A stretch of 64,000 bases of DNA from Thermoplasmatota archaeon (GCA_029259115.1 JAPDJO010000029.1:60975-124974), one strand, 5' to 3'; positions 1 to 20,761 are shown, counted from the first letter of the stretch. Program-made: numbers and translations. The notes: generated from the sequence alone by a model not told the origin.

Positions 1-1
1 A

Positions 2-415
2 TCGATCGGGGTTTATCCTTACAGGATAGGACTTATTGCAAGCTCTATGGCTGATATAATCCTAGAAGAAGCAGAAAATAGAGATTTGGATGTAGATACT
101 ATCGTTGGAATAGCCATAAACGGGATACCCTATGCTACACTTATAGCTGAAGAGCTAGGATTAGAGTTAGCAATATTCAGACCTCACACAGAAAAGGTCG
201 GAGTATTTAGCTCAAACTATGCAAGTGTAAGAGATAAAAGCGTAGTGATAGTGGATGATGTCATAGGAAGTGGGAAAACTATGAGGAAAGCAATAACAGC
301 AACCAAGAAAGAAGGAGGAAAACCTGTTTTGTGTATAACTCTTGTTAACAAAAGAGCTCAGAATGATGTGGATGGTGTTCCTTTAAGAGCCTTAATAAGA
401 ACTAGAGTGATATAA
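2..415 (+). CDS. Orotate phosphoribosyltransferase-like protein (PyrE-like/GfcR family), 5'-partial
   Basis: PRPP-binding motif VVIVDDVIGSG; GIAINGIP. Frame is open upstream of the ATG at 47 to the window edge (SIGVYPYRIGLIASS-M). Confidence 0.8.
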   Translation, partial: SIGVYPYRIGLIASSMADIILEEAENRDLDVDTIVGIAINGIPYATLIAEELGLELAIFRPHTEKVGVFSSNYASVRDKSVVIVDDVIGSGKTMRKAITATKKEGGKPVLCITLVNKRAQNDVDGVPLRALIRTRVI

Positions 416-425
416 GGAGATATCT

Positions 426-1973: not shown

Positions 1974-1996
1974 GTAATCTCTCCTATTATCATGTA

Positions 1997-4355
<2,359 letters not shown>

Positions 4356-4402
4356 AAATCATTTAAATGTTGCTCACTATTAACTTCTTTCGGAGGTAGA
4401 AC

Positions 4403-5620: not shown

Positions 5621-5657
5621 AATGTTAAAATAAAGAATTTCATTTTCTCGGAAACAG

Positions 5658-5729
5658 GGGCCGGTAGATCAGGGGTAGATCGCTGGCTTCGCAAGCCAGA
5701 GGCCACGGGTTCAAATCCCGTCCGGTCCA
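5658..5729 (+). tRNA. tRNA-Ala(CGC); CCA not encoded
   Basis: Acceptor stem GGGCCGG/CCGGTCC with G3:U70 Ala identity pair; D stem GATC/GATC; anticodon stem CTGGC/GCCAG with loop TT-CGC-AA; T arm ACGGG-TTCAAAT-CCCGT. Confidence 0.96.
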
Positions 5730-6982
5730 TCAAATCTATAAGGAGAAAATCTGGTCAACAACCCCAAAAATCGCGTTTTGTTGATTTCGCTCTCCTTATA
5801 AAGGTCTATATAAACCTTTCTATCTCCTTTGCCGCCTGACTTTCCTGCCATCATCAAAGATGGTCTCAGGGCGGCGGCAATCCAGTCTATGGGTAGCTGG
5901 TTATAGTACTGCTCTGCATACCTGACATAATTCTCTGTGGTGGTTATTCTCTCATGACCCAACCAGTTTCTCACCGTATATATATCAAAGTTTCCAGTCT
6001 CTATCTTTGTCTTTATGAGTCTAGCTACTGCACACCAGTGGCGCATGTCGTAAGGCTGAAAATGTCTCCATACCTTCTTTCCGTGTTTACTCAGTTTCTG
6101 TCCGAGTTTTCTGACTGTAACTGGTCTTCCAGATGGCCATAGATAGAGAGCATTTCCAGAATACTGATTCTCAACCTTTGGTCTCCAGTAATCTATCCAG
6201 TTCTTGAATGATTTATGCACCCTTGATGTCATTATAGCCTTCTCAGGTATCAGGGTTCTTTGAGATCTGTGCTTTTTGGTTTCTGTCACGATCAGGTATC
6301 CCATGTCTCCATCCAGAACAACATCATCAACGGTCATGCTCACTATCTCGCTCGGTACCCTCCATCCTATGAGGAAGGAATGGAAGAACAGATACTGATA
6401 GAGAGCATTCTCATAGGGGTCATCCGAATATCTGTAGTTGAAGAATCTGTTTACGGTATTGGGATATGGGAGCATTCTTTTGTGCGAGTGCGGAACCGGT
6501 GGTAGCTTGTAATCCCATCTGGGAATCCCATAAGCCCTGAGGAACATCAGCATCGCCTTCCACTCGTTAGCCAAGGCGTTGGGTGTTGCTCCCTCAACCT
6601 GCTCTCGATAATCCATGTGCCTGATGAAGTTTTCATAATTCGGATTCCTGAAATCAACGGGAACAACTGGATGGGTTTCCATGAACCTTGCATACCTCAG
6701 ATTCTTCTCAACGGTAGATGGTGATAACCTTTGTCTCAGTAAAGCATGCATGGCAACATCATCAAAGGTTGCTTCTTTTGGGTTCAACCTGATGGGACAG
6801 CTGAGCCTGTTAAACTTCCTGAGCTGTTCATACAGCCCCACCATGTTTCTCTTCCATATCTCCTCTCCATTCCATGGTCTCCAGCCTCCATTCGGGAAAA
6901 ACCTTCCCCAATCTCTTCTCTCACCTCCCCCGTGTTTTGATGATGAAGACCTTTGATCCTTTAAATCGTTTTTCTTTCTCAT
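5711..6982 (-). CDS. Tyrosine recombinase/integrase
   Basis: Catalytic residues R (GWRVPSE), K (TETKK), xxR (DMRH), LGH and Y (TENY); 3' end runs through attL into the tRNA T-loop. Confidence 0.93.
   Translation of the reverse strand: MRKKNDLKDQRSSSSKHGGGERRDWGRFFPNGGWRPWNGEEIWKRNMVGLYEQLRKFNRLSCPIRLNPKEATFDDVAMHALLRQRLSPSTVEKNLRYARFMETHPVVPVDFRNPNYENFIRHMDYREQVEGATPNALANEWKAMLMFLRAYGIPRWDYKLPPVPHSHKRMLPYPNTVNRFFNYRYSDDPYENALYQYLFFHSFLIGWRVPSEIVSMTVDDVVLDGDMGYLIVTETKKHRSQRTLIPEKAIMTSRVHKSFKNWIDYWRPKVENQYSGNALYLWPSGRPVTVRKLGQKLSKHGKKVWRHFQPYDMRHWCAVARLIKTKIETGNFDIYTVRNWLGHERITTTENYVRYAEQYYNQLPIDWIAAALRPSLMMAGKSGGKGDRKVYIDLYKESEINKTRFLGLLTRFSPYRFDGPDGI
5718..5803 (+). repeat. attL core plus arm (copy 1)
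   Basis: Ungapped match to 20087-20172 (73/86 by manual alignment) and inverted match to 20024-20085. Confidence 0.9.
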
Positions 6983-6990
6983 TCCTCAAC

Positions 6991-7176
6991 TCATCTCCTC
7001 CTGTTGTTTGGAATCTTGTAATGGTACTTCAGGAAGATCAGAGCCATTCCCAGAACGATGGGAACAGCCCCCTCCTTTATCTTCCCAGCCTGAATCAGAC
7101 CAGCACCATAACTTATCAGCATAATAGCTACACTCATCAGACTCTGATCCTGATCGGGATTTCTTCTCTTCCTCAT
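6991..7176 (-). CDS. Small membrane protein with two hydrophobic helices (61 aa)
   Basis: ATG overlaps the upstream stop (TGATG) with a GGAGG SD; two hydrophobic segments, basic termini. Confidence 0.65.
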   Translation of the reverse strand: MRKRRNPDQDQSLMSVAIMLISYGAGLIQAGKIKEGAVPIVLGMALIFLKYHYKIPNNRRR

Positions 7177-8900
7177 CAGCCTCCCCTCCATACATCAAGT
7201 TTACCAGGGAATGGTTCAAGGAGTATGCGCCTGGCTTGCAGTTGTTTTATGAATTTAGTTGGCTGGGGTATTCCAAGGGATAAGCAGATATCGATGGCTC
7301 TTTCAAAATCGATCAATCCATCATCTCCTCTTTCCTGTTCCAGTTGCTGTATGAATTTCTGAACGGTTTCCTGTGTGACATGTGTGACATTTGTGACATT
7401 TGCATGTGGAAAGCTTTCATCATAATCTTCGAGCTTTCCGTTATTACTTGTCACACTCGTCACACTTGTCACAAACCCTGGAATGTATCTCTTTCCGAGT
7501 TTGTTCATCAGCTTTTCATCCCAGATGATGTATCTTTGATCACGATCTCTCTTTCTCTCTATCCCCAGACTCTTCAGATACTTCCCAACGGATTGAGGAG
7601 TTACCCTTTCAATGCCAAATCTTTCCTTTACCCTGTAGGCTATGTCACTACTCGTTATCCTCTCATAGCCTTCATCCTTCAAAGAAAAGATCGCATTGAC
7701 TATCATCCCCTCAATTGTCTCGCTTCTTTCTTCAACAAGCTCCTCGTTGTATCTTCTGAGAAAATCCCTGAACTCGCTAAGCATATCAGGAATTCCAGAG
7801 AAAAGGAAAGCAAAACTACGCGTCGCCTGGCGCAGTCTTGGTTCTATATCTCCGAGATCAATCTCCTGAATCTTTCTGGAATCTATGGAGTTGTAATTCC
7901 TGAGCCTGAACATCAGAAGCTTGTTTCTAAGTTCTTCCTGTTCCTCGTAGAACTCTGGAGGAAGAACATCAGGTATATCCTTCCTGCTGGTCTCTATCAT
8001 TCTCTCAGTTAAACATCTTGATTCCAGAGCCTTATCCTCGAATGGGCGCCTGGTGGCGATGACCTTCGGGCAGTAAGTTGGAAGAAATTGCAAGGTTTCA
8101 ACATCGTTCTGCCTGCATCTTATGACAGGTCTTCCCCTCTCAAATCCGCAGTTTAGAATTTTGATGACCTCGTTCTTCTCGTTGCTATCTCTGAAATCCG
8201 CTTCATCTAGGATTATCGTCCCCTTCCACTGCCTTATCATCCTGTAGATTGGCGCAGGCGTTACAGCTCCGCTCACCATGCAAGGCTTATAACAGAGACC
8301 GCCAACAACATCAAGGAATCTAGATTTTCCCGTTCCAGTATCTCCAAGAACCCTGAGATATGGAATGGTGTTGACTCTATCATAGAGCCATGTCAAGAGA
8401 ACATACCAGGCTGAGAATCTCTCAAATCTTGGAGAAACATCAACGTATCTATGAATGTGATCCTGGATCTCTCTGACTAAATCTTTCTCTGTTCCATAAT
8501 CCTCGCAGAATGTTGGAAGCTTCACGGCGCCGGTGGACAGGGGATCGTTATCATCGAGTGGAATATAGGGGATGTATTTCCTGATCCCATCTTTAACCTC
8601 GGTTACAATCTCTATGTCTCCATCATCTCCCAGACAGACGAAGACGCCTGGCGGGCTGTTTAATGGATCATAGATCTCCTCGTAGAGAACACCATCTAAG
8701 ACAAAGCCAGATGTTGAGATGATGATCTCCGCATCCTTTTCTCTTTTCCTTGCCATGTTATCCTTTGGCTCGAAATCAGGGCAGTTCTCGGCGCTATCAT
8801 CGCAGGAGATCACATCCATGTAGGGGCAATCCTTACCGTAGTGAGCGCAATCCCTACCGCAGATCAGCCTTGGTTTTCTCTTGCCTCCAGATGCTGACAT
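7176..8900 (-). CDS. Element replication ATPase/helicase-like protein (AAA+/SF3-like) with N-terminal Cys cluster and C-terminal wHTH
   Basis: Walker A GDTGTGKS, Walker B IILDEAD, arginine-finger-like LESRC; N-terminal CxxxCxHxxxxC...C...C; wHTH-like TPQSVGKYLKSLG. Confidence 0.8.
   Translation of the reverse strand: MSASGGKRKPRLICGRDCAHYGKDCPYMDVISCDDSAENCPDFEPKDNMARKREKDAEIIISTSGFVLDGVLYEEIYDPLNSPPGVFVCLGDDGDIEIVTEVKDGIRKYIPYIPLDDNDPLSTGAVKLPTFCEDYGTEKDLVREIQDHIHRYVDVSPRFERFSAWYVLLTWLYDRVNTIPYLRVLGDTGTGKSRFLDVVGGLCYKPCMVSGAVTPAPIYRMIRQWKGTIILDEADFRDSNEKNEVIKILNCGFERGRPVIRCRQNDVETLQFLPTYCPKVIATRRPFEDKALESRCLTERMIETSRKDIPDVLPPEFYEEQEELRNKLLMFRLRNYNSIDSRKIQEIDLGDIEPRLRQATRSFAFLFSGIPDMLSEFRDFLRRYNEELVEERSETIEGMIVNAIFSLKDEGYERITSSDIAYRVKERFGIERVTPQSVGKYLKSLGIERKRDRDQRYIIWDEKLMNKLGKRYIPGFVTSVTSVTSNNGKLEDYDESFPHANVTNVTHVTQETVQKFIQQLEQERGDDGLIDFERAIDICLSLGIPQPTKFIKQLQARRILLEPFPGKLDVWRGG
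7374..7473. repeat. Iteron-like concentric palindrome (putative element origin)
   Basis: TGTGACA at 7374, 7383, 7392; inverse (T/C)GTCACA at 7449, 7458, 7467; inner IR GGAAAGCT (7408)/AGCTTTCC (7432); all share one centre. Confidence 0.8.
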
Positions 8901-8915
8901 GGGTCTGCGCCCTGC

Positions 8916-9173
8916 TCAGCTAAAATCTCTTTTCCCTCCGTTGCTGTCCCTGTTTCTCTCACTGTAGCCATTGTTACCGTAGCCGTTACCATACTTGAGA
9001 TAGTAATAGAGAGGTTTGCATCTCTTCCTGAAGAATGCCAGAGCCAGGCGGAAGGCGTCCACGTTTATATCCCTTGAAGATATCTCCCTGGCATCCTCAA
9101 GGCACTCAAGGAAAATCCTCTTCTGGTACTCGCCATAAGGTCTCCTCCTACCGTTAAACCCATTCCCATTCAT
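8916..9173 (-). CDS. Hypothetical protein, first gene of the element core operon
   Basis: 85-aa ORF co-oriented with, and 15 nt upstream of, the ATPase; NG-rich termini. Confidence 0.6.
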   Translation of the reverse strand: MNGNGFNGRRRPYGEYQKRIFLECLEDAREISSRDINVDAFRLALAFFRKRCKPLYYYLKYGNGYGNNGYSERNRDSNGGKRDFS

Positions 9174-9278
9174 GTTTTGTTTTTCTGTTGATTCTGGGTT
9201 TTAAAGAAGTTGAGGGGTTAAGTGCGAGTAATAATTCAGGATAGCAAAGAAGGCAAGAAAACGGAGAGTATTAGAATA

Positions 9279-10184
9279 TCACCATTCGTAGCTATCTAAA
9301 ATATTCCCAAAATTATCTCTCAAATAGGCGGTATCATGATCGTTGTTCCAGACTGGAGAACCCCTGTTCCAGTATAGGTCTCCTTCTGTATCTGTTCCAT
9401 ATCCAGTATGAACTGTTACAGTAGAATTCACATCAAGAATAAAAGACAATGGAAAGGTGTAAACGTGATTTGCTTCATCACTCAAAGTAAAGCCTCCCAT
9501 ATAGACGGGTTCATATCCTTTGTTCTCTATCACAACATACTCATCATTTAGATTTTCTCTGTCATCACCCTCTGCATCGTAGTGAACATAGACTATATCA
9601 AGATGGATCTCCTCAGGACTGTAGCTATAATTCCACAATCCCACTTTGTTTTCCATGGCTTGATCCTGGAGAGTCAGGTAATAATCCTTCTTGTGAAAGT
9701 TTCCCTCTTCATAGACTCTAGCATATCCTCTCTTCAAAAGCTCGGCATTGAAATCTGTTCCATTCTTGAGGTAAACGTAACATAACCATCTTCCGTAGTA
9801 TCCTTTAAACCCAGCTAGATCATCAAACTGAATATAGACTTCTTTTCCTTCAAGCCATGATTCGGTGAAATTTGTAGCCTTCTCTGCCCAGAATGATAGA
9901 TGGTAAAGATTGTTGATACCATTATACTCGTTAAGCTTGTTCTTATTGGGATCTTTCTCTGGAGTATCCACTCCTAAAAGTCTTACTCTTCCTGTGCTTC
10001 CATCCGGAAACTTAGCATCAAATGTATCTCCATCTATGACGTATGTAACTGTGACAGTATAATTTACTCCGTACTGAAAACCTTCCGATACCGATGGAGA
10101 TTGGTTCTCCTTCTCCTCATTTATACAGCCTGAAAAAACTGCAAAAATGAATATGCTTAAGATTATGAATATTCGCAGTTTCAC
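9279..10184 (-). CDS. Thermonuclease (SNase) plus lamin-tail domain lipoprotein
   Basis: Lipobox VFSGC; VIDGDT, RVRLLGVDTPE, YGRWL, GLW; LTD motifs NDEYVVIEN and VWNNDHDT. Confidence 0.9.
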   Translation of the reverse strand: MKLRIFIILSIFIFAVFSGCINEEKENQSPSVSEGFQYGVNYTVTVTYVIDGDTFDAKFPDGSTGRVRLLGVDTPEKDPNKNKLNEYNGINNLYHLSFWAEKATNFTESWLEGKEVYIQFDDLAGFKGYYGRWLCYVYLKNGTDFNAELLKRGYARVYEEGNFHKKDYYLTLQDQAMENKVGLWNYSYSPEEIHLDIVYVHYDAEGDDRENLNDEYVVIENKGYEPVYMGGFTLSDEANHVYTFPLSFILDVNSTVTVHTGYGTDTEGDLYWNRGSPVWNNDHDTAYLRDNFGNILDSYEW

Positions 10185-10343
10185 ATGTGTAAAGAGATTA
10201 CTTGTATTTTAAACATAACATCTAGATTCACAAGGAAACAAATTTCTGAAATTTCAAAGAAGCTAATGTACAAGTAATAGTCTACGCGATAAATATCCAA
10301 AATTGAGGTAAATATAAAATTGATCTAAAATTTTATTCTTAAA

Positions 10344-10396
10344 TTTTTGATCAAAAAATTTAAAAACTCAAAATCTATACTCTTTTTGATCAAAAA
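10344..10396. promoter_or_regulatory. Paired 14-bp palindromes TTTTTGATCAAAAA flanking a TATA-like box upstream of the DGQHR gene
   Basis: Perfect palindromes at 10344-10357 and 10383-10396; TTTAAAAA at 10359-10366; SD AGGTGA at 10401. Confidence 0.65.
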
Positions 10397-10413
10397 AAGA
10401 AGGTGATAAAAAA

Positions 10414-11586
10414 ATGGATCTAAAAAATGTTATTAAGATAGAACAATGGGGTTATGGGAAAGGAGCTGGTGCAATGCCTATCTACCTATTCGCCGCCCCA
10501 TTGGACATGATAGCATCTAAGGCAGAAATATACAGGAGAACTCCTGGAAGAAAAGATGGTTATCAAAGGGAGTTGAAACAAAGTAGGCTCAGTACAGGAA
10601 AACTGGGCGTAGTTGGTTACATACTCAACCAGGCAGGCATCTTTCCAACATCAGTATTAGTAAACATAAGGAAAGATGAAGGAAGGTTAGAATTTATACC
10701 TCAAATGAAGCTTTTTGAGAAAGTCGAAATAGGTACATTAAAAATCCCTGATGATGTGAAGTGGTACATAATAGATGGGCAACATAGAATAGAAGCGTTA
10801 AAGAAAGTTTTACAAGAGAAGGAAGACATTCACAAATATCCTCTGATTGTATCCATGATGAACGAGAATAAATTCAATGAAATGTTATTTTTCTGGTTGG
10901 TGAATTCGAGAGCAAAAAGCGTAGAAACAGGGTTGGCCTATAGAATCCTCCAAAATATGCTCTACAACATAAAGGCGCCAGAGTGGGTCGAAAGTATAAT
11001 GAAAGGAGCTGATAGGCGAATAGGAATAGCGGCAACAATTGTAGATTATCTGAATGGAAGGGAGGATTCACCGTTTTATAGAAGAATCAAAGAGGAAGGG
11101 GAACCTACAAAATCGCATCATTTGACAACTGACCAGACGATGACACGATATATCTCTATTGTTTTGAAAGAACCTATATTCGAAGGTATGTACGATGAAG
11201 ATGTTGCAGATTTGCTTATAAGATATTGGAATGCTATAAAAAGGATCTACCCAGCATGCTTCGATAAACATGAAGAATATGCTCTTATGTCAACTATTGG
11301 TTTATCTGTGATGCATAGATTATTTCCAACGATTTATGGTTATTGCTCGCTAGACGGGAACATGTCATCTGAAAATATGGAAAAGTATCTTAGATACCTC
11401 CTGCAGGAGACCCCAAGACACAAATATCCAGATTTCAGGCGACCTATAGATGAAAGATGGTGGCATAAAACGGATTCTCCTGCTCTTGGAGTTATAATGG
11501 GTACCGGGGAGGGACATTATAAAAGTGTAGCATTGAATTTTACTGAGAAGATCAAAGAGGCGATTAGGATTGAGAGAGAAAAATGA
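10414..11586 (+). CDS. DGQHR domain protein (DndB/DpdB-like, ParB-related fold)
   Basis: GYQR, FPTSVLVN, IIDGQHR, FWLVNSRAKSV signature motifs. Confidence 0.9.
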   Translation: MDLKNVIKIEQWGYGKGAGAMPIYLFAAPLDMIASKAEIYRRTPGRKDGYQRELKQSRLSTGKLGVVGYILNQAGIFPTSVLVNIRKDEGRLEFIPQMKLFEKVEIGTLKIPDDVKWYIIDGQHRIEALKKVLQEKEDIHKYPLIVSMMNENKFNEMLFFWLVNSRAKSVETGLAYRILQNMLYNIKAPEWVESIMKGADRRIGIAATIVDYLNGREDSPFYRRIKEEGEPTKSHHLTTDQTMTRYISIVLKEPIFEGMYDEDVADLLIRYWNAIKRIYPACFDKHEEYALMSTIGLSVMHRLFPTIYGYCSLDGNMSSENMEKYLRYLLQETPRHKYPDFRRPIDERWWHKTDSPALGVIMGTGEGHYKSVALNFTEKIKEAIRIEREK

Positions 11587-11641
11587 ATTAAACCGGCTTT
11601 TCCCTTTTTATTATCTTTAACAATCATTGAGGTGTTCGGGT

Positions 11642-12163
11642 ATGGGGAAAAGAAAACTATACACAGACGAACATTTGCTCGATATTTTAAGAAAGGAAGC
11701 AAAAAAGTTAGGGAAGGCACCTTCCAGCATACATTTTGCTCGATCTACAGTATTACCTTCACCTTCATGCTATATTTACCGTTGGGGTTCATGGAATAAG
11801 GCCCTTAAAGCAGCCGGACTCAAACCAAACTTAAAAAATGAACAAAAGATAGATGAATTCACTTTACTTAGAGAGAAGCCTAGACTACACATCAACTTGG
11901 GCTCTATACCCAAAGAGAAGAGGAAAAAAATTAAAAAAATCTTCATTAGAGGCTATAAGACAATTTATTATCTGGAGGGAGATGAAATAAGAGCGGTTAG
12001 AGAGTTCTTAACAGCAAACATGAAAAAATTGAAAAAAAGAAAGTTGAAAGACATAAATAAGTACAATCTCCCGATAGAAATGGTTGATTTGATTAAGAAA
12101 ATGTATCATGAGCAAAAACTTACTGAAGTCTCAAAAACGGATGCTACCATTTATAATTTCTGA
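11642..12163 (+). CDS. Basic protein with a homing-endonuclease-associated repeat
   Basis: YTDEHLLDILR...LGKAPS...WGSWNKALKAAGL matches this repeat type; SD GAGGTG before ATG 11642. Confidence 0.7.
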   Translation: MGKRKLYTDEHLLDILRKEAKKLGKAPSSIHFARSTVLPSPSCYIYRWGSWNKALKAAGLKPNLKNEQKIDEFTLLREKPRLHINLGSIPKEKRKKIKKIFIRGYKTIYYLEGDEIRAVREFLTANMKKLKKRKLKDINKYNLPIEMVDLIKKMYHEQKLTEVSKTDATIYNF

Positions 12164-12298
12164 AATGTGTTAAATTTATCTCCTAGGTGGAGGGATGGTA
12201 TGATTATCACTATGTGCTTCTTCGGATATGAAACCAAATTTTATAAATGGAGTGGTTTTTTACATCATAGGATATGATAAAGATAACGAGGTAAATCT

Positions 12299-15181
12299 AT
12301 GACCGTACCAAGGATTGAGGAGAGAACATTATACCCACCTCTGATCAGTTATTTAGATAGTATCGGCTTTAAAGCCGTTGGTGAAACAAAGGTTATAAAA
12401 AAGCATCCCGACATCCTTTTCCGAACAGATTCTATTTCGTTTGTTATAGAAGTCAAAATCGGTAAACCTGAAGTCGGATTAGAAGCTGTCGCACAAGCAT
12501 CAGACTATGCTAGAAAACTAGGTACGCAAAATATTATTATCTTAATTTATCCTGAAAAATATAGAAACCAAATTATTCTGGATCCTAAAATCGTCTCCAA
12601 AGTGGCTCTAAATGAAAAAATAACTGCTCTGGTGTTAACCGAATATTGGACAGAAAGTTTAGATATAGAACCATATAAACTTTTTGAACAGCTTAAACAA
12701 CGGATTCATCTCAAAGAAATCAAGGTTGATTTCAGGACCATTGTTAGACTTATAGAACGATATGTAAAGGATTTGAATGCTATCATCTATCAAATAAAGA
12801 CTGAAGAATTGATATCAGAGGTAGTCGATAAGTTGGATCTATTTTCCTCCATAGGCGAGATAAAGGATAAAGAAACTGCAAAAAAGCAGGTGATAAATCT
12901 AGCTTCATATCTCCTCTTTAATCAACTCTTGTTTTATCATATTTATAAGAGAAAGTCAGGACGTGAAGAACTTCCAGAGCTAGACGAAATAACAAACGTC
13001 AGTGACCTCCAGAGATATTTCGACAGGATAACAGACATTGACTACCAGTCAATTTATAGAGTCAATATTCTCCGACATATACCAAATAGGGAAGTTGTCA
13101 TAGATACACTAAATGAGGTTATAAAAGCTATAAAACTTCTTAGAGCAGAGCACATAACCAGCGATCTTGCAGGAAGATTCTTCCATGATTTGATACCGTA
13201 TGAAGTGAGGAAGGTCTTGGCTGCGTTCTATACACATCCTGTTGCAGCTGAAATTTTGGCAGGTTTGACGATCGATTCATGGGATGAAACAGTTATAGAT
13301 CCTGCTTGTGGATCTGGTACACTCTTGGTTGCTGCTTACAAAAGAAAGATGGACCTTTACCGAAAACTCTACGGATACAGAGATATAGAAAGAATCCATA
13401 GACAGTTTATTGAGCATGATCTAACAGGCATAGACATAATGCCTTTTGCTGCACATATTAGTACAATAAATTTAACGATGCAAAATATAGAATATGAAAC
13501 TAATATAGTTAGGATTGGTACAAAAGATTCTCTAGATTTAGTAAAATCGTTAAAAACTCCAGATTTCAACAGACGGGGCATTAAAATATCACCCTATACC
13601 GAAACTATACAACAAACTCTTTTTGGAATAACAGGACAAAAAGTCAGAAAAGAAGGGGCAATTTCTCCAGAAGGGAAAGGCTATGAATTCTATATAAAGC
13701 CTGTGAATGTAGTCATAATGAATCCTCCGTTTACAGACAGACATAAAATGCCAGAAGATTACCGAAAGAAACTAAAATTATTGAATCTAAGGTCTATATG
13801 TGGAGGAGCTGTCGATCTCTGGGGATATTTCTTAGCTTTAGCCCATTATTTTGTCAAAGATGGAGGAAAAATTGGGGCTGTTATTCCTATAAATATCGCC
13901 CGTGGGAAATTTACAAAGAATATAAGAGAATTGATCTTCTCGCAATATCAGATAAAATATATTGTCAAATCTATAAAGGATATAGGATTTAGTGAAGCTG
14001 CAGGCTTTAGGGACATACTTCTAGTATTAGAGAAAAGAAATCCTACAAGTAACGATATAACCAAGATAATCTTTCTTAAAAAATCTATTCGAGCACTTTC
14101 TTTGAACGAAGCAAAACATATAGTTAATATTATAAAAGATGCAAACTCAGATTATTCCGACGAATTTGTGGATGTAAATATCATAAGGTTCAGAGACCTA
14201 ATAAAGTTCAAAGAAAACTTAATGCCGTTACTTTCAGGACACATTAAAGAATCAAGAAAGATGATAGAATCATTTGAAAAAGTTATTTTAAAGAAGGGGG
14301 AAGATAAGCTGATTAACATAACCGAAGATATGATATCCGTTGGTTTCATAACTGATAAGAAAGGTATAGCAGATCTGACATTTATTACTCGTCCATTTGA
14401 TAGACGAAGGGTATCTCGGGCCTTCTTGATTCTTGAGAATGACAACAATAAAGAAGTGATGGCAAAAATAAAAAATACCGGCATAACAATTAAAGTACAA
14501 AAAAGTATAACAAAACCTGCTCTGAGAACGCTCACAGGTGTGAAAACTTTAGATATTACAAATAATCATGATTATTTCATCATTGATAAATTTGATGACT
14601 TCGATATTGTTTTCAATTTGTCTAAATGGCAAAAAGGTAGGAAGTTTAGTTGGAATTGGATAAAAAACAAAATACCGACTTTAAGCTATGTAGTACTAGC
14701 TGAGAAAATTAATCCCTTCTCGCCAAACACGAGCTTAATTTCTGTTCATATGGAAAATAAATTTGTAGTCCCTCATGTATTTTGGATCTTCAAACACATA
14801 CGTAGCAAAGACGAAGGAAAGATGTTATGTCTTTATCTAAACAGCATTGCATTTTTTATCCAATATATGAGGAGAAAATCAGAAGCAACGGGAGAATATG
14901 CGCATATCTTAAAAGAAGATCTTATATTAACGAAAGTGTTAGATTTCGATACTTTAGCAGAAAATAAAAAAAGAGTTTTGTTAGAGTTGTTCGAAAAACT
15001 CAAAGATGTTGAATTTCCATCCATTTTAGAACAACTAGAAAACCGTTTCTGGGCTAGGGTTGAATTAGATAAAACAATACTAAAGATTCTTGGATTCTCA
15101 AATAAAGAAATTAACAAGTGGTTACCCAAGGTTTATGATGCTTTGGTTGAAGAATTGAAAGCTATGAAGGAAGTTAGATAA
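12299..15181 (+). CDS. Type IIG/IIL restriction-modification fusion (PD-(D/E)xK nuclease, N6-adenine MTase, TRD)
   Basis: HPD...VIEVK nuclease motif; AFYT; motif I DPACGSG; motif IV NPPF; long C-terminal specificity region. Confidence 0.9.
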   Translation: MTVPRIEERTLYPPLISYLDSIGFKAVGETKVIKKHPDILFRTDSISFVIEVKIGKPEVGLEAVAQASDYARKLGTQNIIILIYPEKYRNQIILDPKIVSKVALNEKITALVLTEYWTESLDIEPYKLFEQLKQRIHLKEIKVDFRTIVRLIERYVKDLNAIIYQIKTEELISEVVDKLDLFSSIGEIKDKETAKKQVINLASYLLFNQLLFYHIYKRKSGREELPELDEITNVSDLQRYFDRITDIDYQSIYRVNILRHIPNREVVIDTLNEVIKAIKLLRAEHITSDLAGRFFHDLIPYEVRKVLAAFYTHPVAAEILAGLTIDSWDETVIDPACGSGTLLVAAYKRKMDLYRKLYGYRDIERIHRQFIEHDLTGIDIMPFAAHISTINLTMQNIEYETNIVRIGTKDSLDLVKSLKTPDFNRRGIKISPYTETIQQTLFGITGQKVRKEGAISPEGKGYEFYIKPVNVVIMNPPFTDRHKMPEDYRKKLKLLNLRSICGGAVDLWGYFLALAHYFVKDGGKIGAVIPINIARGKFTKNIRELIFSQYQIKYIVKSIKDIGFSEAAGFRDILLVLEKRNPTSNDITKIIFLKKSIRALSLNEAKHIVNIIKDANSDYSDEFVDVNIIRFRDLIKFKENLMPLLSGHIKESRKMIESFEKVILKKGEDKLINITEDMISVGFITDKKGIADLTFITRPFDRRRVSRAFLILENDNNKEVMAKIKNTGITIKVQKSITKPALRTLTGVKTLDITNNHDYFIIDKFDDFDIVFNLSKWQKGRKFSWNWIKNKIPTLSYVVLAEKINPFSPNTSLISVHMENKFVVPHVFWIFKHIRSKDEGKMLCLYLNSIAFFIQYMRRKSEATGEYAHILKEDLILTKVLDFDTLAENKKRVLLELFEKLKDVEFPSILEQLENRFWARVELDKTILKILGFSNKEINKWLPKVYDALVEELKAMKEVR

Positions 15182-15182
15182 G

Positions 15183-16310
15183 ATGGTTCTTAGTGAAAAA
15201 CAGTACTTGCCCACTAAAGATGACCTAGAAAATGAAGAATTAAAAAGTTTGGCAAAGAGACTTAAAAAAGACACATATAGAGAAACGTTAACGAATATCG
15301 TCGAGTGGCAGGAGAGGAATTTGAGCTATTGGTTTGACAGAGCAGACATGTTTATTCTGGTATATGTTCTAGCAGCTATCTCGTTTTACTTCCAACCAAT
15401 ATCCCCTATCATAAAATGTGTATCCTCCATCGCCTTTTTGGCAGTACCAATACTTGTAAGTATCATAGATATCACCTTTATGCTCCTATTGACGACTTTC
15501 TTTTCAATTTTTGTTGTAACCATTTTCACTATTTTGTTTTTATATGGTTTTCCAACCTCTAATAACATCTTTCCAATCCATCAGTTGATCGTGCTATCCA
15601 TGGTTACTGGGGCGATGATATCCCTGTGGACTTATTTGGTATTGAGATATAGGCGACTTAAGCATATTCAACCGAGTTTCAGAATATCGGATGTCTTTGA
15701 AATGAGCTTACCTGTCAAAAAGATATTAGAATACCGTTTAGCAATCTGTAGAGACTATGCGAAATTAACCTCAGCTTTTCTCCTGAATATTTGTTCAGGG
15801 AACGAAATATACTTTGTAAGAATTCCCTGGCATGTTGCAGCAGCTATCAAAGTTAATAACAAGATTTATGTCTTAGATCAGAGATTGCCTATAACCTCTC
15901 TAGAAAAGTGGTTAGCTTATTGGAGAGAAAGATTCAAAAAAAGAAAAATTACGGCAACCATACTTAGTATATCTGTTGAAAACGGTAAAATCGAGACTAA
16001 AAAGATTAAAAAAGTGAACTTACAGGATTTTGAAATACCGAATGTAGATACGGAAAGATTATCTTCTCAATTAGCAAACCACATAGGATTAAAACGACCT
16101 CGATTGAAACAGAGTGGGCGACCAGATTTAAGTCTGCCCTTCAAAAATTATGCCATATATTATGAGAATGACGAAATAACGATCCATTCCATGCTAAAAT
16201 CCTTTAAAATATGTCTAGAAAAGGAACTCTGCGGAGATCTCGGGAGGATATCAAAGATTTTGATAGAACAAAGAGAGAAGGACTTGGTGTTGAATGTATG
16301 GACTACATGA
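15183..16310 (+). CDS. Membrane transglutaminase-like protein (DUF553/UPF0252-like)
   Basis: Cys-His-Asp triad ICRDYA / WHVAA / VLDQ; several TM helices inserted in the N-terminal part. Confidence 0.75.
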   Translation: MVLSEKQYLPTKDDLENEELKSLAKRLKKDTYRETLTNIVEWQERNLSYWFDRADMFILVYVLAAISFYFQPISPIIKCVSSIAFLAVPILVSIIDITFMLLLTTFFSIFVVTIFTILFLYGFPTSNNIFPIHQLIVLSMVTGAMISLWTYLVLRYRRLKHIQPSFRISDVFEMSLPVKKILEYRLAICRDYAKLTSAFLLNICSGNEIYFVRIPWHVAAAIKVNNKIYVLDQRLPITSLEKWLAYWRERFKKRKITATILSISVENGKIETKKIKKVNLQDFEIPNVDTERLSSQLANHIGLKRPRLKQSGRPDLSLPFKNYAIYYENDEITIHSMLKSFKICLEKELCGDLGRISKILIEQREKDLVLNVWTT

Positions 16311-16320
16311 AGTCAATTTC

Positions 16321-17553
16321 CTAGCACATTTCTCTTAATTTCTCTTCAATAACCCGAGCAGGAATATCAGGAAGAGATATCAGGTGAGAACGTCCTCTTT
16401 CGCCTGCGCCTGATATTTTCAGATCTATGAAACCGTATCCATGCAATCTTTTCAGATAATCCAGAAACTGCCTCTCCTTTCTTGGACTTTCTCCAAACTC
16501 CTCACATACCACATTATACACATCAAAAGCTTCTCCGGTCCTCAGGTAGGCTTTCCCTGTTTTTCTTAACTTCCTTGCTATTGCCAGTAAAACGAGTTTC
16601 TCATGTTTACCCAGATATTTCAGCTTGCTTTCTGTGATGACTGAATAGGTATCTGCCTTCGCTGCCCTGACATGTTCAGGTGTAACCTCTGGGTCTTCAT
16701 TCTCCTCAGCTATCTTTCCAGCCTTCCATAAAAGCTCAATCGCAAATCTTGCATCTCCCCAAACTGAAGCAATATCTGCTATGAGCTTGATGCTCTCATC
16801 ATTAACTTTTCCGCTGTAAAATGCAAGATTCACCCTTTGTTTGATTATCTCGATCAGCTCTTTGCATGTGTATCTGCTGAACTCGATCTTTGTGTGTCCA
16901 AATGAGCTTATGGTTGCTGGATTGAATCTTTCCAGGAGATTGTCATGAGAGATGAGGATCAGGGAAAGACCTTCATAACCTTTGAGCTTGAAGCTCTCGT
17001 TGAATCTTGTCAGAGAATAGATGAACCTGCAACCATATTTCTTGAAGTGAGCATCCACATCATCGAGAATCAGAATGAGATGTGCGGATCTGCTCTTCAG
17101 GTATCTCCTCAGATTATCAAGCATCTCCTCATCAGAGAATCCTCTCTCAGGGATCCTGATGTTCAGCTCTTCAAAAACAGCAGAGAGAATGGTGTTTGGA
17201 GATAGATGATCCATGCAGTTCACCCTTGCCCATTTTATCTCCTTTCCTGATTTCTTTGCATCCGCTGATATCATCTGGCAGAATCTCTTTGCTGTTACGG
17301 TTTTGCCTGTTCCTATGTCTCCATAGAGCAAAACATGCCTTGATATTCCCTGAGAAAGTGTTCCGCTGAAGTGATTTTTCAGTTTCTTCAGTTGCTTCTC
17401 TCGATTGGGTAGATCTCTTGGAACGTAACTCATGTCGAGCTTTGACTCGTCTTTGAAGATAGATGAAACTCCTTGCATCCTAGAAATTTCAAGGGATTCA
17501 TGGTATTTAAAAGTCTTTGGGGGTTGGGTGCGAGTGAATTTAAATTCGCTCAA
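16321..17553 (-). CDS. cdc6: Orc1/Cdc6 replication initiator family protein (element-borne)
   Basis: SIFKDESKL..YVP..LP.RE, Walker A GDIGTGKT, VNC, LILDDVD, GDARFAI, C-terminal wHTH. True start may be the internal Met (MQGVSS). Confidence 0.92.
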   Translation of the reverse strand: MSEFKFTRTQPPKTFKYHESLEISRMQGVSSIFKDESKLDMSYVPRDLPNREKQLKKLKNHFSGTLSQGISRHVLLYGDIGTGKTVTAKRFCQMISADAKKSGKEIKWARVNCMDHLSPNTILSAVFEELNIRIPERGFSDEEMLDNLRRYLKSRSAHLILILDDVDAHFKKYGCRFIYSLTRFNESFKLKGYEGLSLILISHDNLLERFNPATISSFGHTKIEFSRYTCKELIEIIKQRVNLAFYSGKVNDESIKLIADIASVWGDARFAIELLWKAGKIAEENEDPEVTPEHVRAAKADTYSVITESKLKYLGKHEKLVLLAIARKLRKTGKAYLRTGEAFDVYNVVCEEFGESPRKERQFLDYLKRLHGYGFIDLKISGAGERGRSHLISLPDIPARVIEEKLREMC

Positions 17554-18142
17554 CTACATAATTTGCTAACCATTGACCATATGTATCTTCCAACGAGAAG
17601 GGTGCCAGATATTCTTGTTCCAACTCGAGAAGTCTGCTTCTAACAAGCTTCATATCACGATTTGCAACTTTTACAATTTCCTTATAGGATTTCTCGCTCA
17701 AGATATCATGATATCGCATCTTCACATAAAACCACATACCATGAAGCAGGGGTATCTTTTCACAGAGTCTCTTGGCAGCTGTCTCATCGTTTATGAATCC
17801 TACACTCTTTTCACCATTCTGGATATACTTCTCAACACAAAGAGACATGGAAATCTCACCTTTACCTAAAGTCAACAATATATTTTCCCGTTGATATCGA
17901 TATATTTCGCTTTCTTGAACATCACAGATTTTTAGTAAACCTTCTCTCATGAATTCATCAAACATGGCCCTCTGATCCCTCTTGGTTAGTTCCTTCCCTT
18001 CTATGTAGGAAGGGACAGTAAGAACAAAGTTCTCTTTGCTTTGTAGCTCTTTCATATAAGTAAGTATCTCTCGGAATTTCAAGGCAGTATACAAGATATT
18101 AATAAGGACACTTGCATCAAGAACAGCGAGTATGGCTGACAT
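17540..18142 (-). CDS. PIN-domain ribonuclease (VapC-like toxin)
   Basis: AVLDASVLIN, LGKGE, FINDETA acidic PIN pattern; lies downstream of an antitoxin-like gene. Confidence 0.75.
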   Translation of the reverse strand: MSAILAVLDASVLINILYTALKFREILTYMKELQSKENFVLTVPSYIEGKELTKRDQRAMFDEFMREGLLKICDVQESEIYRYQRENILLTLGKGEISMSLCVEKYIQNGEKSVGFINDETAAKRLCEKIPLLHGMWFYVKMRYHDILSEKSYKEIVKVANRDMKLVRSRLLELEQEYLAPFSLEDTYGQWLANYVVERI

Positions 18143-18151
18143 CCTAACACC

Positions 18152-18781
18152 TTAATTGAGAAGATCCTTGAACTGTGATATCGATAGTCCTGCCAATTCT
18201 GCAGCTTTACCTAAACTTATTTTCCCCTTTTTGTATAATCTAAGAGCATATAACGTTCTATCTTTCTCTATCCGCCGTATTTCGGTAGATTTTGAAATAA
18301 ATTCTTTACCCAGTTCTGATTGGCCTAGAATGTCTAAATATATTATTGCTAGTATTTCATCATCAGTTACAACCTGATCGTTAAGATATTTCTTTATTTC
18401 CTCTAAAATCGAAATGTGTCTTTTCTGTGAAAGTTTATTTATTAATTCCTCGAAAATTTCTTTTCCTCTTGGAGTTAATCTTATGTTCCTTGCAGTTGTG
18501 GGATCTCCTTCAAAATCGATTAATCCTTCAAGAGCCATCTGGTTCATTTCTTCCTCTATCAACTCACTATAAGGTCCCTTCTTGTGGGGATAGAAACCTG
18601 CGTTCATGAGGAGATCTCTTCTCTCATTGTCATTTTCACCTAATATAAGCAAAAAATAGGTCAACATTTTTTGCAAACGCAGATGGTTCAGTACAGGTTT
18701 AAAAGAATTTACACCCAACAGGAGAAGAATTAGCTTCTGGGTAGAGGTTAACCCTTCTAGACTTTGGCTCATCATAGCCAC
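18152..18781 (-). CDS. Putative antitoxin: YwgA/Panacea-like wHTH domain plus C-terminal UPF0175
   Basis: LRLQKML...FYPHKKGPYS; C-terminal LYKKGKISLGKAAELAGLS is typical of UPF0175. Confidence 0.75.
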   Translation of the reverse strand: MAMMSQSLEGLTSTQKLILLLLGVNSFKPVLNHLRLQKMLTYFLLILGENDNERRDLLMNAGFYPHKKGPYSELIEEEMNQMALEGLIDFEGDPTTARNIRLTPRGKEIFEELINKLSQKRHISILEEIKKYLNDQVVTDDEILAIIYLDILGQSELGKEFISKSTEIRRIEKDRTLYALRLYKKGKISLGKAAELAGLSISQFKDLLN

Positions 18782-18827
18782 AAGTAGTAAAAGACTTTAT
18801 AACATTAACCTATTTAGCTCTACAGGA

Positions 18828-19958
18828 ATGGTAGAATTAAAGGTACTTTGTGAAGATACAGATGTACCTACCTCTATTTTCGAGATCAGATCAAAAGAGG
18901 GTACAATAACCTCTCCACTACGAGGGATTTCTAAATATCAGAGAGAATATTCCAAGAAATTGAAAGAGGGAAATTATATCATCGAAGTTCATCACTATCT
19001 GTCATCTACGATGATCAAGAGCATTTCTCTTTCATCAACAGCATCGGAGAGGTTCAACAGAAGGATAACGAGTAAGATGATAAAAGGAAAGTTACATTTG
19101 TTTGTTTTTGATCTAACAGAAGGGTATCCAAGTAAGAGAGAAGAACTGGAAAACCTTCTACATGTGTTGAATTTTGAGAGTATAGTAAACGATAATTTAA
19201 TATGTCTACCATTTTCTTCGTCTACTCTCCAATCCTTAGATGAGTATGAAAAGATATACAATATACTAGAGAACAAAGCAGATGATCTTATGGAAATTTT
19301 AAGTACATTTGTTATCAAGCAAAGGAACATTCTGGGCTATGTTCCTATATTCTGTCTTGGAGGAAAATACATAGAAAAATTGATTACTCTTTATGAAAAG
19401 GCGAACATCAATAGTTTTCTTTTTGATCTTGGCGGAAAACATATAGAAAGATTCAGGGGACAAATATCCCAGCTCATTAAGGTGCGTAGGAACTTGATGA
19501 AAGAGTACGGATATACTTTTTTCTATGCATTTAACACATTCAGTGGCAGAGTTAGCAAAAAAATTGATGTTATTCCAGCAAGAGACTTCCTCTCTATCTT
19601 TGTTGGATTTGATGGATTTGGCCCTTCGCACAAGAGATATAAGCTGCCCAAAGAAATTGCTGAATCTCTTATTCTGAAAGAGAAAAGATTTAGATTGTTC
19701 GATGAGGATGAATATGTTTACAGACTCTACAACAAAGAGGAAGTGAGAAAGATAACATCTCATCATGATCCTCAAATCGGCTGCAAGATCTACAATGCCG
19801 CACATCAAACAGCAGAGTTAGATAAGATCAAAGCAAAAATCAAAGAAGAAAATACATATCTGCGAAGTTTAGAAAAAAAAGAAACCGTCTTTCCTATTTT
19901 GTCAAATCTTCTGGATATTAGAAAGGAGAGTCTGTTGAACAAGAAATTATTCATATAA
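18828..19958 (+). CDS. Hypothetical protein, possibly a divergent TGT-like TIM-barrel
   Basis: 376-aa ORF; N-terminal EIRSKEGTITSP resembles the TGT 'G-x-I-x-T-P' start; late VGFDGFG strand; no canonical DSGG. Function is tentative. Confidence 0.55.
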   Translation: MVELKVLCEDTDVPTSIFEIRSKEGTITSPLRGISKYQREYSKKLKEGNYIIEVHHYLSSTMIKSISLSSTASERFNRRITSKMIKGKLHLFVFDLTEGYPSKREELENLLHVLNFESIVNDNLICLPFSSSTLQSLDEYEKIYNILENKADDLMEILSTFVIKQRNILGYVPIFCLGGKYIEKLITLYEKANINSFLFDLGGKHIERFRGQISQLIKVRRNLMKEYGYTFFYAFNTFSGRVSKKIDVIPARDFLSIFVGFDGFGPSHKRYKLPKEIAESLILKEKRFRLFDEDEYVYRLYNKEEVRKITSHHDPQIGCKIYNAAHQTAELDKIKAKIKEENTYLRSLEKKETVFPILSNLLDIRKESLLNKKLFI

Positions 19959-20023
19959 GACACCTCAAACAAAAAAATAAAAAGAGGGTTAATGAGAACA
20001 GACCCAACTGCCCCATCCGCTGA

Positions 20024-20172
20024 GATCAACAGACTGAAATTTTGAACTCTGTTGCCCTGATTTTCTCCTTGAGAGGTTGATGGACTCCGTCCGGTCCATC
20101 CAACTTATATGGAGAAAAATCAGTCAACAGACCCAAAAATCGCGTTCTGTTGATTTCGCTCTCCATATGAAG
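20024..20172. repeat. attR: core flanked by an inverted arm (copy 2) and a direct arm (copy 3)
   Basis: TTGATGGAC-TCCGTCCG-GTCCATC core; arms homologous to 5725-5803. Confidence 0.9.
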
Positions 20173-20194
20173 ATATATAAAAATGGAAAGAGGA

Positions 20195-20761
20195 TTACTG
20201 CTTTCCTATTGGAAGGATCTCTTTACCATAGGTTTCGTTTGTAACCTCCGCTATTGCTAGATATATTGCACTAAAGCCGCAGAAGATGCCCTCTATACCT
20301 GCTATCTTTGTTATGATTCCACTCCCTGTTATTTCTCCCAAGGCAAGTAACCAGAACAGGATCGCCAGTGTTAAAAATACAACCTGTAACGCTCTATTCA
20401 TTTTTAGCGTGGAGAAGAACATCATGAATGTAAACAGACCCCACATGAATAGATATGCAGCCATCGCAGCTGCATTCGGTGAATTTACTCCTAAGATATT
20501 CGGCATAACTATCAACCCAACGAGGGATAACCAAAATAGACCATAGGAACAAAATGCAGTTGTACCAAAGGTATTTCCCTTCTTAAACTCCAATATCCCA
20601 GCAAATATCTGAGCCAAACCTCCATAAAATATTCCCATCGCAAGGATCATTGAGCCCAGTTCAAACAATCCTGCATTGTGTAAATTCAAAAGTACGGTAG
20701 TCATTCCGAAGCCCATCAAGCCCAGAGGTGCCGGATTCGCAAATATATCTTTATTTACCAT
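20195..20761 (-). CDS. satP: Acetate uptake transporter (GPR1/FUN34/SatP family)
   Basis: Signature [11 protein letters not shown]; six TM helices; SYGLFW. Confidence 0.93.

Follow-up and report, generated by a model that had tools for sequence, protein, structure and literature searches.

Conserved hairpin arms flank the attachment sites of a widespread Xer/Cre-like integrase family in Thermoplasmata

Several described integration systems resemble parts of the locus reported here. In SSV-type archaeal elements, the attachment site of the element (attP) lies within the integrase reading frame, according to the available parts of two sources (PMC8371274, PMC7253208), and both the Mx8 and the SSV integrases extend across attP (PMC4383910, available in part). 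The SNJ2 system has a 14-bp core flanked by conserved P and P′ arms, and no hairpins are described in the accessible portion of that report (PMC5861418). We analyzed a 64,000-nt stretch of the genome of an uncultured Thermoplasmata archaeon (JAPDJO010000029.1:60975–124974, assembly GCA_029259115.1; hereafter the window). The window contains a plasmid-like element integrated in the 3′ end of a tRNA-Ala(CGC) gene, with the element's tyrosine integrase gene (int) convergent with the tRNA. On balance, the evidence somewhat favors a reading in which this integrase family has att flanks with conserved hairpins, recombination takes place on duplex DNA, the third arm copy present in the window is a relic, and the arms act as terminators or insulators.

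As in pNOB8/SNJ2-type elements, the catalytic part of int remains intact after integration, and the short core is located at the extreme 3′ end of the tRNA gene. The locus nevertheless did not fit the pNOB8 type neatly, because the int open reading frame (ORF) crosses attP; it also differed in the lack of a Phage_int_SAM domain by Pfam, in its covarying hairpins of inverted symmetry and in that no conserved helper genes were seen. It was not SSV-type, since the integrase had no PF16795 match and the gene was unsplit, with attP in its 3′ tail beyond Y352. Compared with lambda-type integrases, no separate N-terminal arm-binding domain was predicted. A GGAG box, a candidate arm-type site, was carried by almost all of the 68 P′ arms and by 11/13 P arms. 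The locus shared with XerA/XerH and Cre the predicted fold (XerA, XerH, Tn1549 Int and Cre) and a site of two 9-bp half-sites around an 8-bp spacer. In contrast to lox and dif sites, which have no structured arms, this integrase targets tRNA 3′ ends and has arms of about 60 bp on both sides of attP. A first-pass annotation of the window, made by a model from the DNA alone, had remarked that the att architecture was not one it recognized from SSV1- or pNOB8-type integrases. The architecture is not described in the available parts of a review of archaeal recombinases (PMC8371274), which mention neither 'arm-type' nor 'hairpin', or of the SNJ2 paper (PMC5861418). A literature search on archaeal attP sites with stem-loop terminators yielded nothing on this integrase family.

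The 14-nt att core consisted of the last 12 nt of tRNA-Ala(CGC) and 2 nt beyond. Exact matches to the core were found only at 5718 and 20087, both in the window (0.13 expected) and in the whole 1.40-Mb, 94-contig genome. The sequence TTGATGGAC (20077–20085) was the exact reverse complement of GTCCATCAA (5725–5733), and the spacer between these 9-bp half-sites was 8 nt (20086–20093), in agreement with the perfect 9-bp inverted repeat around an 8-bp spacer that the annotation had reconstructed. We infer that the crossover core is a 7–8-bp overlap from the 3′ strand of the tRNA acceptor, together with the flanking 9-bp inverted half-sites. The element boundaries given in Table 1 assume a crossover in the core; the population data are also compatible with exchange elsewhere in the 97-nt repeat described below.

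An arm had been claimed to occur in three copies, and all of its features were present as placed: on the int side (copy 1), inverted at the far end of the element (copy 2) and in direct orientation just outside the element (copy 3). Copies 1 and 3 were part of an ungapped direct repeat of 97 nt (5718–5814 and 20087–20183), with 81/97 identical positions (84%) and an E value of 6.7e-24 in a BLAST search against the organism's own genome; the earlier hand count of 73/86 was exact on recount. The inverted copy (20024–20085) was identical to copies 1 and 3 at 42/62 positions without gaps and had a 12-mer in common with the direct copies that occurred nowhere else in the window. In a gapped comparison of P and P′ of the window element, the similarity had a z-score of 9.0 against shuffles. 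The fold of the nested hairpins had z-scores of −4.0 for copy 1 and −6.1 for copy 3, and copy 2 folded alone was unremarkable (−0.8 and +0.7). Not only attR, the right junction, for which this had been proposed, but also the reconstructed attP formed a long imperfect palindrome. Two compensatory substitution pairs had also been pointed out between the copies, and the sequence contained both. Family covariation backed the inner pair (A-T versus G-C), whose compensation is real, and the outer pair (A-T versus T-A) was weak, a distinction based on the pair counts in 14 close copies: the inner position was GC in 5, AU in 3 and A·C in 6, and the outer position was AU in 6, UA in 2, UG in 1 and unpaired in 5. 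Within this window-type subfamily of 14 copies, the inner helix was 90.8% paired, and covariation in the subfamily alone was marginal (11/500 shuffles reached the observed value).

The annotation had proposed aligning the att flanks of integrase homologs and looking for covariation, and this comparison located the arms across the family, with 68 int-side arms, P arms in 7/7 complete elements and a covarying inner stem. In total, 78 int-side arms were obtained from tRNA-adjacent loci, 68 of which were distinct. They were located at about 14 kinds of tRNA (Pro with three anticodons, Val with three, Met, Arg with two, Ala with two, Ile, Lys and one unresolved tRNA), and the complete elements added Arg-CCT as a target. 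The 68 arms aligned nearly gap-free in a common order, read away from the tRNA: a spacer of 8–14 nt, the GGAG box, about 8 nt, a 7–8-bp stem with a 14–16-nt loop, and a T-run. Three of the four box positions were at least 90% conserved. Most arms had T3–T6 after the stem, and about one third also had TCTCC, which pairs back to the GGAG box. The stem sequence varied by subfamily, with CAACAG, GATAGA, AAGAGA, CAGAGTT and CAGTAC types.

Pairing of the inner stem was maintained across these different sequences. In the 68 arms, 73.3% of the cells were paired, against 57.9% after shuffling (reached by 0/500 shuffles) and 37–52% with slid partners. The covariation score was 0.473, against 0.238 after shuffling (again 0/500) and at most 0.245 with slid partners. 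One of the inner-stem pairs was AU in 33 arms, CG in 20, UA in 9, GC in 2 and another combination in 4. No rows were dropped from this count, and the Val/Met 'GAAAC' subfamily, which has a shifted stem, lowers the percentages; a single register for all 68 arms failed for this subfamily. Judged from the alignment, the stem is under selection for pairing. A covariance model (R1), built from three copies, detected the hairpin in 13/41 related genomes, including the present one, and missed distant arms (11 matches in 27 int loci). Of the 20 matches listed, 14 followed a tRNA gene at a distance of 1–8 nt, and these tRNAs were of many kinds; the remaining listed matches were P arms without a tRNA in the locus or lay inside coding-looking sequence. 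In seven cases, an integrase gene on the opposite strand came after the hairpin, with its 3′ end facing it. For the module behind tRNA-Arg(CCG) of this genome, a search against Rfam returned the tRNA and nothing else.

Six further complete elements were found, 7.5–11 kb long and delimited by direct repeats of only 12–20 nt at the 3′ end of the tRNA. Together with the window element, 7/7 complete elements carried an inverted far-end arm with the box, and a hairpin was usually present. The box was located 12–18 nt from the core in 11/13 P arms scored. The z-scores for similarity between P and P′ were 9.0, 5.2, 2.9, 2.8, 2.5, 1.7 and 1.0, and were at least 2.5 in five of the seven elements. P and P′ stems were often alike within an element (the window element, L059, L063 and L070) and differed in L064 and L074. 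Five metagenome contigs (L121, L122, L142, L161 and L179) contained int followed by P′-core-P without a tRNA, as contiguous attP-type junctions. The attP was confirmed as a long imperfect palindrome with two inverted arms flanking a conventional core, and the inverted far-end arm is family-wide. The P-arm hairpin of L142 was nearly the same as the copy 3 hairpin of the window, and its own P′ hairpin was of the GATAGAG type. It appears that elements shuffle their arms in modular fashion. Deeper inside the P arm of the window element, an A-rich run preceded a TTAATGAGAA-type motif. By visual inspection, other elements carried this inner motif as AAAAAGAAAAAAAGA..TTTTAGTGAGA, and an A-rich run followed by a TTTTAGTGAGA-like motif was also seen in the P arms of L059, L068, L070, L074, L122 and L142. 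On the int strand this run is a long T-run, which could be a terminator of int in the circular form or a promoter element.

The integrase matched PF00589 at residues 208–357 (E = 1.3e-9, 38.5 bits versus a cutoff of 27.1). This was the only Pfam family reported at E ≤ 0.01, with no match to PF16795 (Phage_integr_3), and the matches to the XerC, XerD and XerA families of NCBIfam were weak and far under their cutoffs. Among 16 aligned homologs, the invariant columns were R208, K236/K237, R314, H343 and Y352, which, by position, are the putative catalytic residues of tyrosine recombinases. An AlphaFold2 model built from the 16-sequence alignment was confident at residues 46–375, with a predicted local distance difference test (pLDDT) score per block of about 58–96 and mostly >80, and was disordered (pLDDT <50) at residues 1–45 and 376–423. 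The best Foldseek matches of the model were XerA, XerH, Tn1549 Int (core-binding, CB, and catalytic, CAT, domains) and Cre, with E values of 1e-7 to 1e-5, and the sole sequence match to a solved structure was Thermoplasma XerA (E = 8.6e-4). There was no Pfam match to Phage_int_SAM, yet the N-terminal helical domain superposed on the CB domains of Xer and Cre. The model contained no arm-binding domain and no extra folded domain N-terminally. As modeled, the integrase is a two-domain (CB + CAT) Xer/Cre-like tyrosine recombinase.

Relatives of the integrase were encoded in 81/118 genomes of the order, often in multiple copies, and a metagenome scan yielded 259 further relatives, of which 80 loci were kept for analysis. 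A convergent tRNA gene adjoined int in 23/30 genome loci and 55/80 metagenome loci. No accessory or small gene beside int was conserved beyond close relatives. In the viral contigs of IMG/VR, neither a single-protein nor an alignment query returned any relative, so no viral identity is claimed. By eye, the targets beside int in three metagenome loci (L127, L186 and L187) resembled intron-containing tRNA genes that were not called by ARAGORN, and in L152 and L166 just the 3′ half of a tRNA-Pro was present beside the arm.

The int ORF crosses the attachment site. Its last approximately 30 codons were read from the arm module and the core, and the ORF was open through arm and core into the tRNA in 56/68 loci (23 genome and 45 metagenome loci, from the L029–L058 and L111–L190 sets). 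From about residue 383 to the tRNA, the Int frame was open in 18/23 genome loci (6 and 7 for the other two frames) and in 38/45 metagenome loci (7 and 13). The stop codon was located 16–17 nt within the tRNA in 30/45 metagenome loci. In the 12/68 loci not open to the tRNA end, the stop followed just after a conserved DWI motif in the genome set. On the int strand, the GGAG box mostly encoded Ser-Pro, and the phase relative to the module was common to 30/35 informative rows despite varied linker lengths. Arm variability had no codon-position periodicity (entropy 1.20, 1.20 and 1.30; p = 0.28). Since the ORF is open through the core, integration alters the predicted C-terminus of Int; in circle-form reconstructions, the frame continued for 12 to >90 codons, and these extensions were not conserved. 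The ORF of 423 aa was intact in the integrated state, with the core beyond the invariant Y352. The enzyme is not split by integration, because attP lies in a dispensable-looking 3′ tail after this residue. For the Myxococcus phage Mx8 IntP/IntX, Tojo et al. (1996) reportedly found attP at a tRNA 3′ end and a long C-terminal stretch replaced upon integration. The present family resembles this bacterial system in having the int ORF across attP at a tRNA 3′ end and a predicted C-terminus that changes, and differs in that only the last few predicted Int residues are affected here.

The outside copy at attR (copy 3) could not be explained as a regular part of the system. On the host-side flank (B′), the box or a P′-type module was present in 0/6 of the other elements; the B′ flank of L068 carried a box-like motif in the opposite orientation. 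An inspection of empty tRNA-Ala sites had been suggested with the annotation, and a contig from run X20 of another sample (785 nt, depth 3) joined position 5799 to 20171, with PGK and tRNA-Ala, one module and yaaH in this order. This empty site already held one module. The libraries of X20 and of a further run, X19, were labeled as RNA, and their contigs may contain DNA. The three-copy design that the annotation had regarded as part of the system was thereby contradicted, both by the missing outside copy at 6/6 other elements and by the module in the empty site. Modules also occurred alone. In this genome, 3/41 tRNAs were followed by a module, and most of the others by plain T-runs. The same hairpin, about 65 nt long, immediately followed the tRNA-Arg(CCG) gene of contig 22 and the tRNA-Arg(TCT) gene of contig 10, with no integrase nearby, and the same tRNAs were targets in relatives (Arg-CCG in genomes G002 and G016, Arg-TCT in G002). 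In genome G005, solo modules were located behind three tRNAs, and no integrase was found in that genome. Some modules were decayed or carried further remnants: at the attR of G002 at tRNA-Arg(TCT), the outside box was kept and the stem was lost; L018 retained the hairpin and about 25 nt resembling the 3′ end of int; and in L028 the stem was broken. Given the empty site with a module and the decayed modules elsewhere, copy 3 is most likely a resident module that predates the integration, a remnant of an earlier element of the family. Elements accrete and decay at tRNA hot-spots, and tandem arrays contain internal attP-type junctions. With copy 3 as a relic, attR is therefore an attP-like P-core-P′ junction, as inside tandem arrays, except that here the second member has shrunk to a single module. 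Behind tRNA-Arg(CCT), the B′ flank of L074 contained its own native hairpin followed by T6, and there are hints that some native tRNA terminators in this group also consist of a hairpin plus a T-run.

Resident and incoming modules have about 97 bp in common and can, for this reason, exchange sequence. Two metagenome loci (L111 and L112) used the same tRNA as the window element and encoded integrases 96–98% identical to that of the window. Across 2.6 kb of PGK-tRNA-int, L112 and the window were 97.1% identical, yet the int-side module of L112 was 95.9% identical to copy 3; that of L111 combined variants of copies 1 and 3 in a mosaic. These modules imply recent exchange, or crossovers at differing points of the 97-nt repeat. 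Near-identical genomes therefore disagree on whether copy 1 or copy 3 belongs to the element itself. At the four listed variant positions (5735, 5736, 5745 and 5753), the empty-site contig agreed with copy 1. In the window, the int-side copy may thus be largely resident and the outside copy largely the element's own, which would place the exchange toward the far end of the 97-nt repeat and not in the core; on this thin evidence, later gene conversion is about equally probable.

We propose that a Xer/Cre-like tetramer would exchange strands on duplex DNA within the short core of an attP that carries inverted module copies on both sides, copy 1 on the int side and copy 2 at the far end. Outward from the core, the module comprises a half-site, about 8 bp, the GGAG box, the hairpin and a T-run. 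The arm would act as a bidirectional terminator or insulator that stands in for the tRNA terminator displaced by integration and shields the core and int from transcription by the tRNA promoter, and the GGAG box would be a putative protein-binding site. This role of the arm is plausible, if somewhat short of probable. It is in line with the T-runs after the stems, with the fact that a compact genome has kept solo modules behind its tRNAs and with the better pairing of the tRNA-sense strand in 51/68 arms (−9.1 versus −7.4 kcal/mol). For ICEKp1, the accessible part of the source reports that integration displaces the tRNA terminator and that stem-loops of the element beside the tRNA attenuate transcription (PMC13023037); the present family likewise has stem-loops beside the tRNA and differs in that int is convergent with the tRNA, not downstream of it. 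Several observations weigh against termination or against copy 3 as a relic. Half of the strand preference was compositional (−0.84 in shuffles), the T-runs were short (T3–T4 in the window's own subfamily), the loops were long for a terminator, and the P-arm hairpins were modest (z-scores of +0.1 to −4.3). Hairpin-plus-T sites were not enriched at positions 1–20000 of the window (8 versus 12.8 expected), in a scan that allowed loops of 3–8 nt only. In 56/68 loci, the int ORF continues through the int-side hairpin, an awkward arrangement if int transcripts were to terminate there. The covarying inverted half-sites, separated by about two helical turns, are also compatible with a dimeric DNA-binding protein co-evolving with its site. 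The empty-site evidence consists of one contig of depth 3 from an RNA-labeled library, and relics as cleanly trimmed as these need selection or some other mechanism. A native host origin would account for the latter modules differently: a terminator or processing hairpin of the tRNA 3′ flank would have been captured by elements together with the tRNA end, and copy 3 would be host DNA. The solo modules directly behind tRNA-Arg(CCG) and tRNA-Arg(TCT) in compact core-gene surroundings, the three in G005 and the single module in the empty site are compatible with this explanation. It is unlikely, however, as only 3/41 tRNAs of this genome carry a module, the solo-bearing tRNAs are targets in G002 and G016, and 6/6 other B′ flanks lack one. 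Furthermore, the unrelated element L142 has a hairpin of this sequence type as its P arm, and capture leaves the inverted copy inside the element unexplained.

The main rival to termination or insulation is protein binding, and the two roles are not exclusive. The arms would then be accessory sites on double-stranded DNA, bound by the integrase or by another protein of element or host origin (an architectural protein or one like a recombination directionality factor), that shape a symmetric synapse and set directionality; covariation of the stem would reflect a dimer co-evolving with its palindromic operator. A nearly invariant box whose distance from the core is fixed on both arms, stem half-sites about 22 bp apart from center to center, and the P and P′ stems that are alike in the window element, L059, L063 and L070 all argue for such sites. 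So does SNJ2, whose type of integrase has, in the portion of the report available, conserved P/P′ arms and winged helix-turn-helix (wHTH) helper proteins (PMC5861418). Nevertheless, we consider accessory binding as the chief role possible but doubtful. The integrase model has no arm-binding domain and is disordered at residues 1–45, no small gene beside int is conserved beyond close relatives, and the stems differ widely among integrases that are 50–60% identical, as well as between P and P′ in L064 and L074. G·T 'pairs' also outnumbered A·C (63 versus 24), which is unexpected for a double-stranded site and confounded by register (one shifted subfamily) and composition. A coding role offers another explanation for the int-side copy, namely that its conservation is due chiefly to a functional C-terminal integrase tail encoded in it. 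As in Mx8 IntP/IntX, the end of this tail would be encoded by the tRNA in the chromosome and by the P arm in the circle, giving a state-dependent integrase. The openness of the Int frame far above that of the other frames, the common module phase despite different linkers and the recurrent stop position 16–17 nt inside the tRNA are expected if the tail matters. The lack of codon periodicity, the pLDDT <50 of the predicted tail, the 12/68 loci closed before the tRNA end and the unconserved circle-form tails make this rather unlikely, and P arms and solo modules retain the structure without coding for Int. Very improbable, finally, is recombination on folded substrates, in which the recombination site would be built or presented by arms extruded as cruciforms or folded in single-stranded DNA, as in integron attC sites or the CTX phage. 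The pairing is under selection and attR and the reconstructed attP are imperfect palindromes with conserved pairing, as attC and CTX sites are; low-affinity binding of archaeal XerA to stem-looped att sites is also reported (PMC8371274, in the part available). In attC and CTX sites, however, the folded stem is itself the site, whereas the core here lies between the hairpins, outside both stems, in the classical duplex layout of inverted repeat, 8-bp spacer and inverted repeat. On account of this position and layout, the folding that the annotation had suggested was not supported. The 14–16-nt loops are poor for extrusion, the repeats of six other elements comprise 12–20 nt of tRNA only, and the targets are ordinary double-stranded chromosomal tRNA genes, most without a B′-side module. 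As the hairpins lie on either side of the core and most attB (chromosomal target) sites lack them, we infer that they are not the recombination substrate and retain duplex exchange with terminator or insulator arms as the preferred reading.

Table 1. Coordinates of the integrated element, its attachment sites and arm modules in the window.
Feature	Position	Strand	Basis or remarks
tRNA-Ala(CGC), integration target	5658–5729	+	ARAGORN; final 12 nt belong to the core
Left 14-nt att core (attL)	5718–5731	+	Exact match
Right 14-nt att core (attR)	20087–20100	+	Exact match
Tyrosine integrase ORF (int), 423 aa	5711–6982	−	ORF, PF00589, predicted fold; stop codon inside the tRNA gene
Int-side arm module (copy 1)	5725–5814	+	Sequence, fold, R1 match (E = 3e-24), family alignment
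Copy 1 parts	Half-site 5725–5733; GGAGA box 5742–5746; then TTT after the stems	+	Sequence
Copy 1 stems	Outer 5737–5746 / 5791–5800; inner 5755–5761 / 5778–5784	+	Sequence
P arm, inverted module (copy 2)	20024–20085	−	42/62 identity, 12-mer, z = 9.0; weak R1 match (E = 7.5)
Copy 2 parts	Half-site 20077–20085; box (TCTCC on + strand) 20064–20068; inner stem 20027–20033 / 20048–20054		
Outer-side module at attR (copy 3), P′-type, probable resident or relic	20094–20183	+	Fold; R1 match (E = 4e-25); single-module empty-site contig
Copy 3 parts	Box 20111–20115; outer stem 20106–20115 / 20160–20169; inner stem 20124–20130 / 20147–20153		
A-rich run and TTAATGAGAA-type motif, deeper inside the P arm	19976–20003	+	By eye
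Integrated element, about 14.4 kb	5732–20086		Boundaries assume crossover in the core
Orc1/Cdc6	16321–17553		
Host GPR1/FUN34/YaaH-family gene	20195–20761	−	Convergent on the outside module; stop codon 12 nt from the repeat end

The cargo of the element comprised a 574-aa P-loop/wHTH protein, an SNase+LTD nuclease, a DGQHR (DpdB/DndB-like) protein, an HNH-repeat protein, a type IIG-like methyltransferase, a transglutaminase-like protein, Orc1/Cdc6 and a UPF0175 protein. No capsid-like gene was recognized among the cargo, hence the label plasmid-like. Positions 9279–15181 resembled a small defense island, with the SNase+LTD candidate (PADLOC C3a212), DGQHR/DpdB-like and HNH-repeat proteins and a 960-aa type IIG/PglX-like methyltransferase. 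The G+C content of the element did not differ (0.383 versus 0.385). The host genes flanking the element were those for GAPDH and PGK on its left, and on its right those for a YaaH-family transporter and a class I aminoacyl-tRNA synthetase (tRNA-synt_1). In a genome of the same genus (G003, contig C26; L079), neither the module nor yaaH was present behind tRNA-Ala(CGC), and a ACAGGAAAAG-like remnant and different genes were found instead; this flank is therefore a variable hot-spot. The two sequencing runs with the best DNA matches (X1 and X2) yielded no contig that joins the flanks across the element and none with a circle junction; contigs only were searched, so absence is not implied. One X1 contig (depth 56.6) joined position 10347 to 15229, omitting 4.9 kb of cargo, with a shorter side of only 22 letters, and probably represents another organism or a repeat.

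The integrases described here form a real and widespread family, with no sign of a new recombination chemistry. A more far-reaching reading, which we offer as speculation and consider improbable at present, is that they represent a third archaeal integration-module design beside the SSV and pNOB8 types. In such a design, attP would be placed in the 3′ tail of int within symmetric structured arms, the state of the element would set both the C-terminus and an antisense transcript from the tRNA promoter, and relics would serve as landing pads. If this were true, the C-terminus of Int would be encoded by the tRNA in the chromosome and by the P arm in the circle, and an antisense transcript, terminated at a hairpin, would run from the tRNA promoter into the int tail in the integrated element and not in the circle. 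These two state-dependent switches could bias directionality without a separate excisionase. Relic arms behind tRNAs would then be landing pads of about 97 bp that permit crossovers off the core.

The analysis provides the att-site anatomy for a very common, previously undescribed integrase family of sediment Thermoplasmata (81/118 genomes), and with it precise rules by which element ends and relics can be located. It shows that archaeal att sites can bear conserved, covarying structured arms, and adds an archaeal case in which an integrase ORF runs across attP at its 3′ end without self-destruction upon integration. If the arms are terminators or insulators, they would constitute a compact, portable part for archaeal genetics. 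If they are protein-binding sites, they would be, within the portions of the literature covered, the first symmetric accessory arms for an archaeal integrase.

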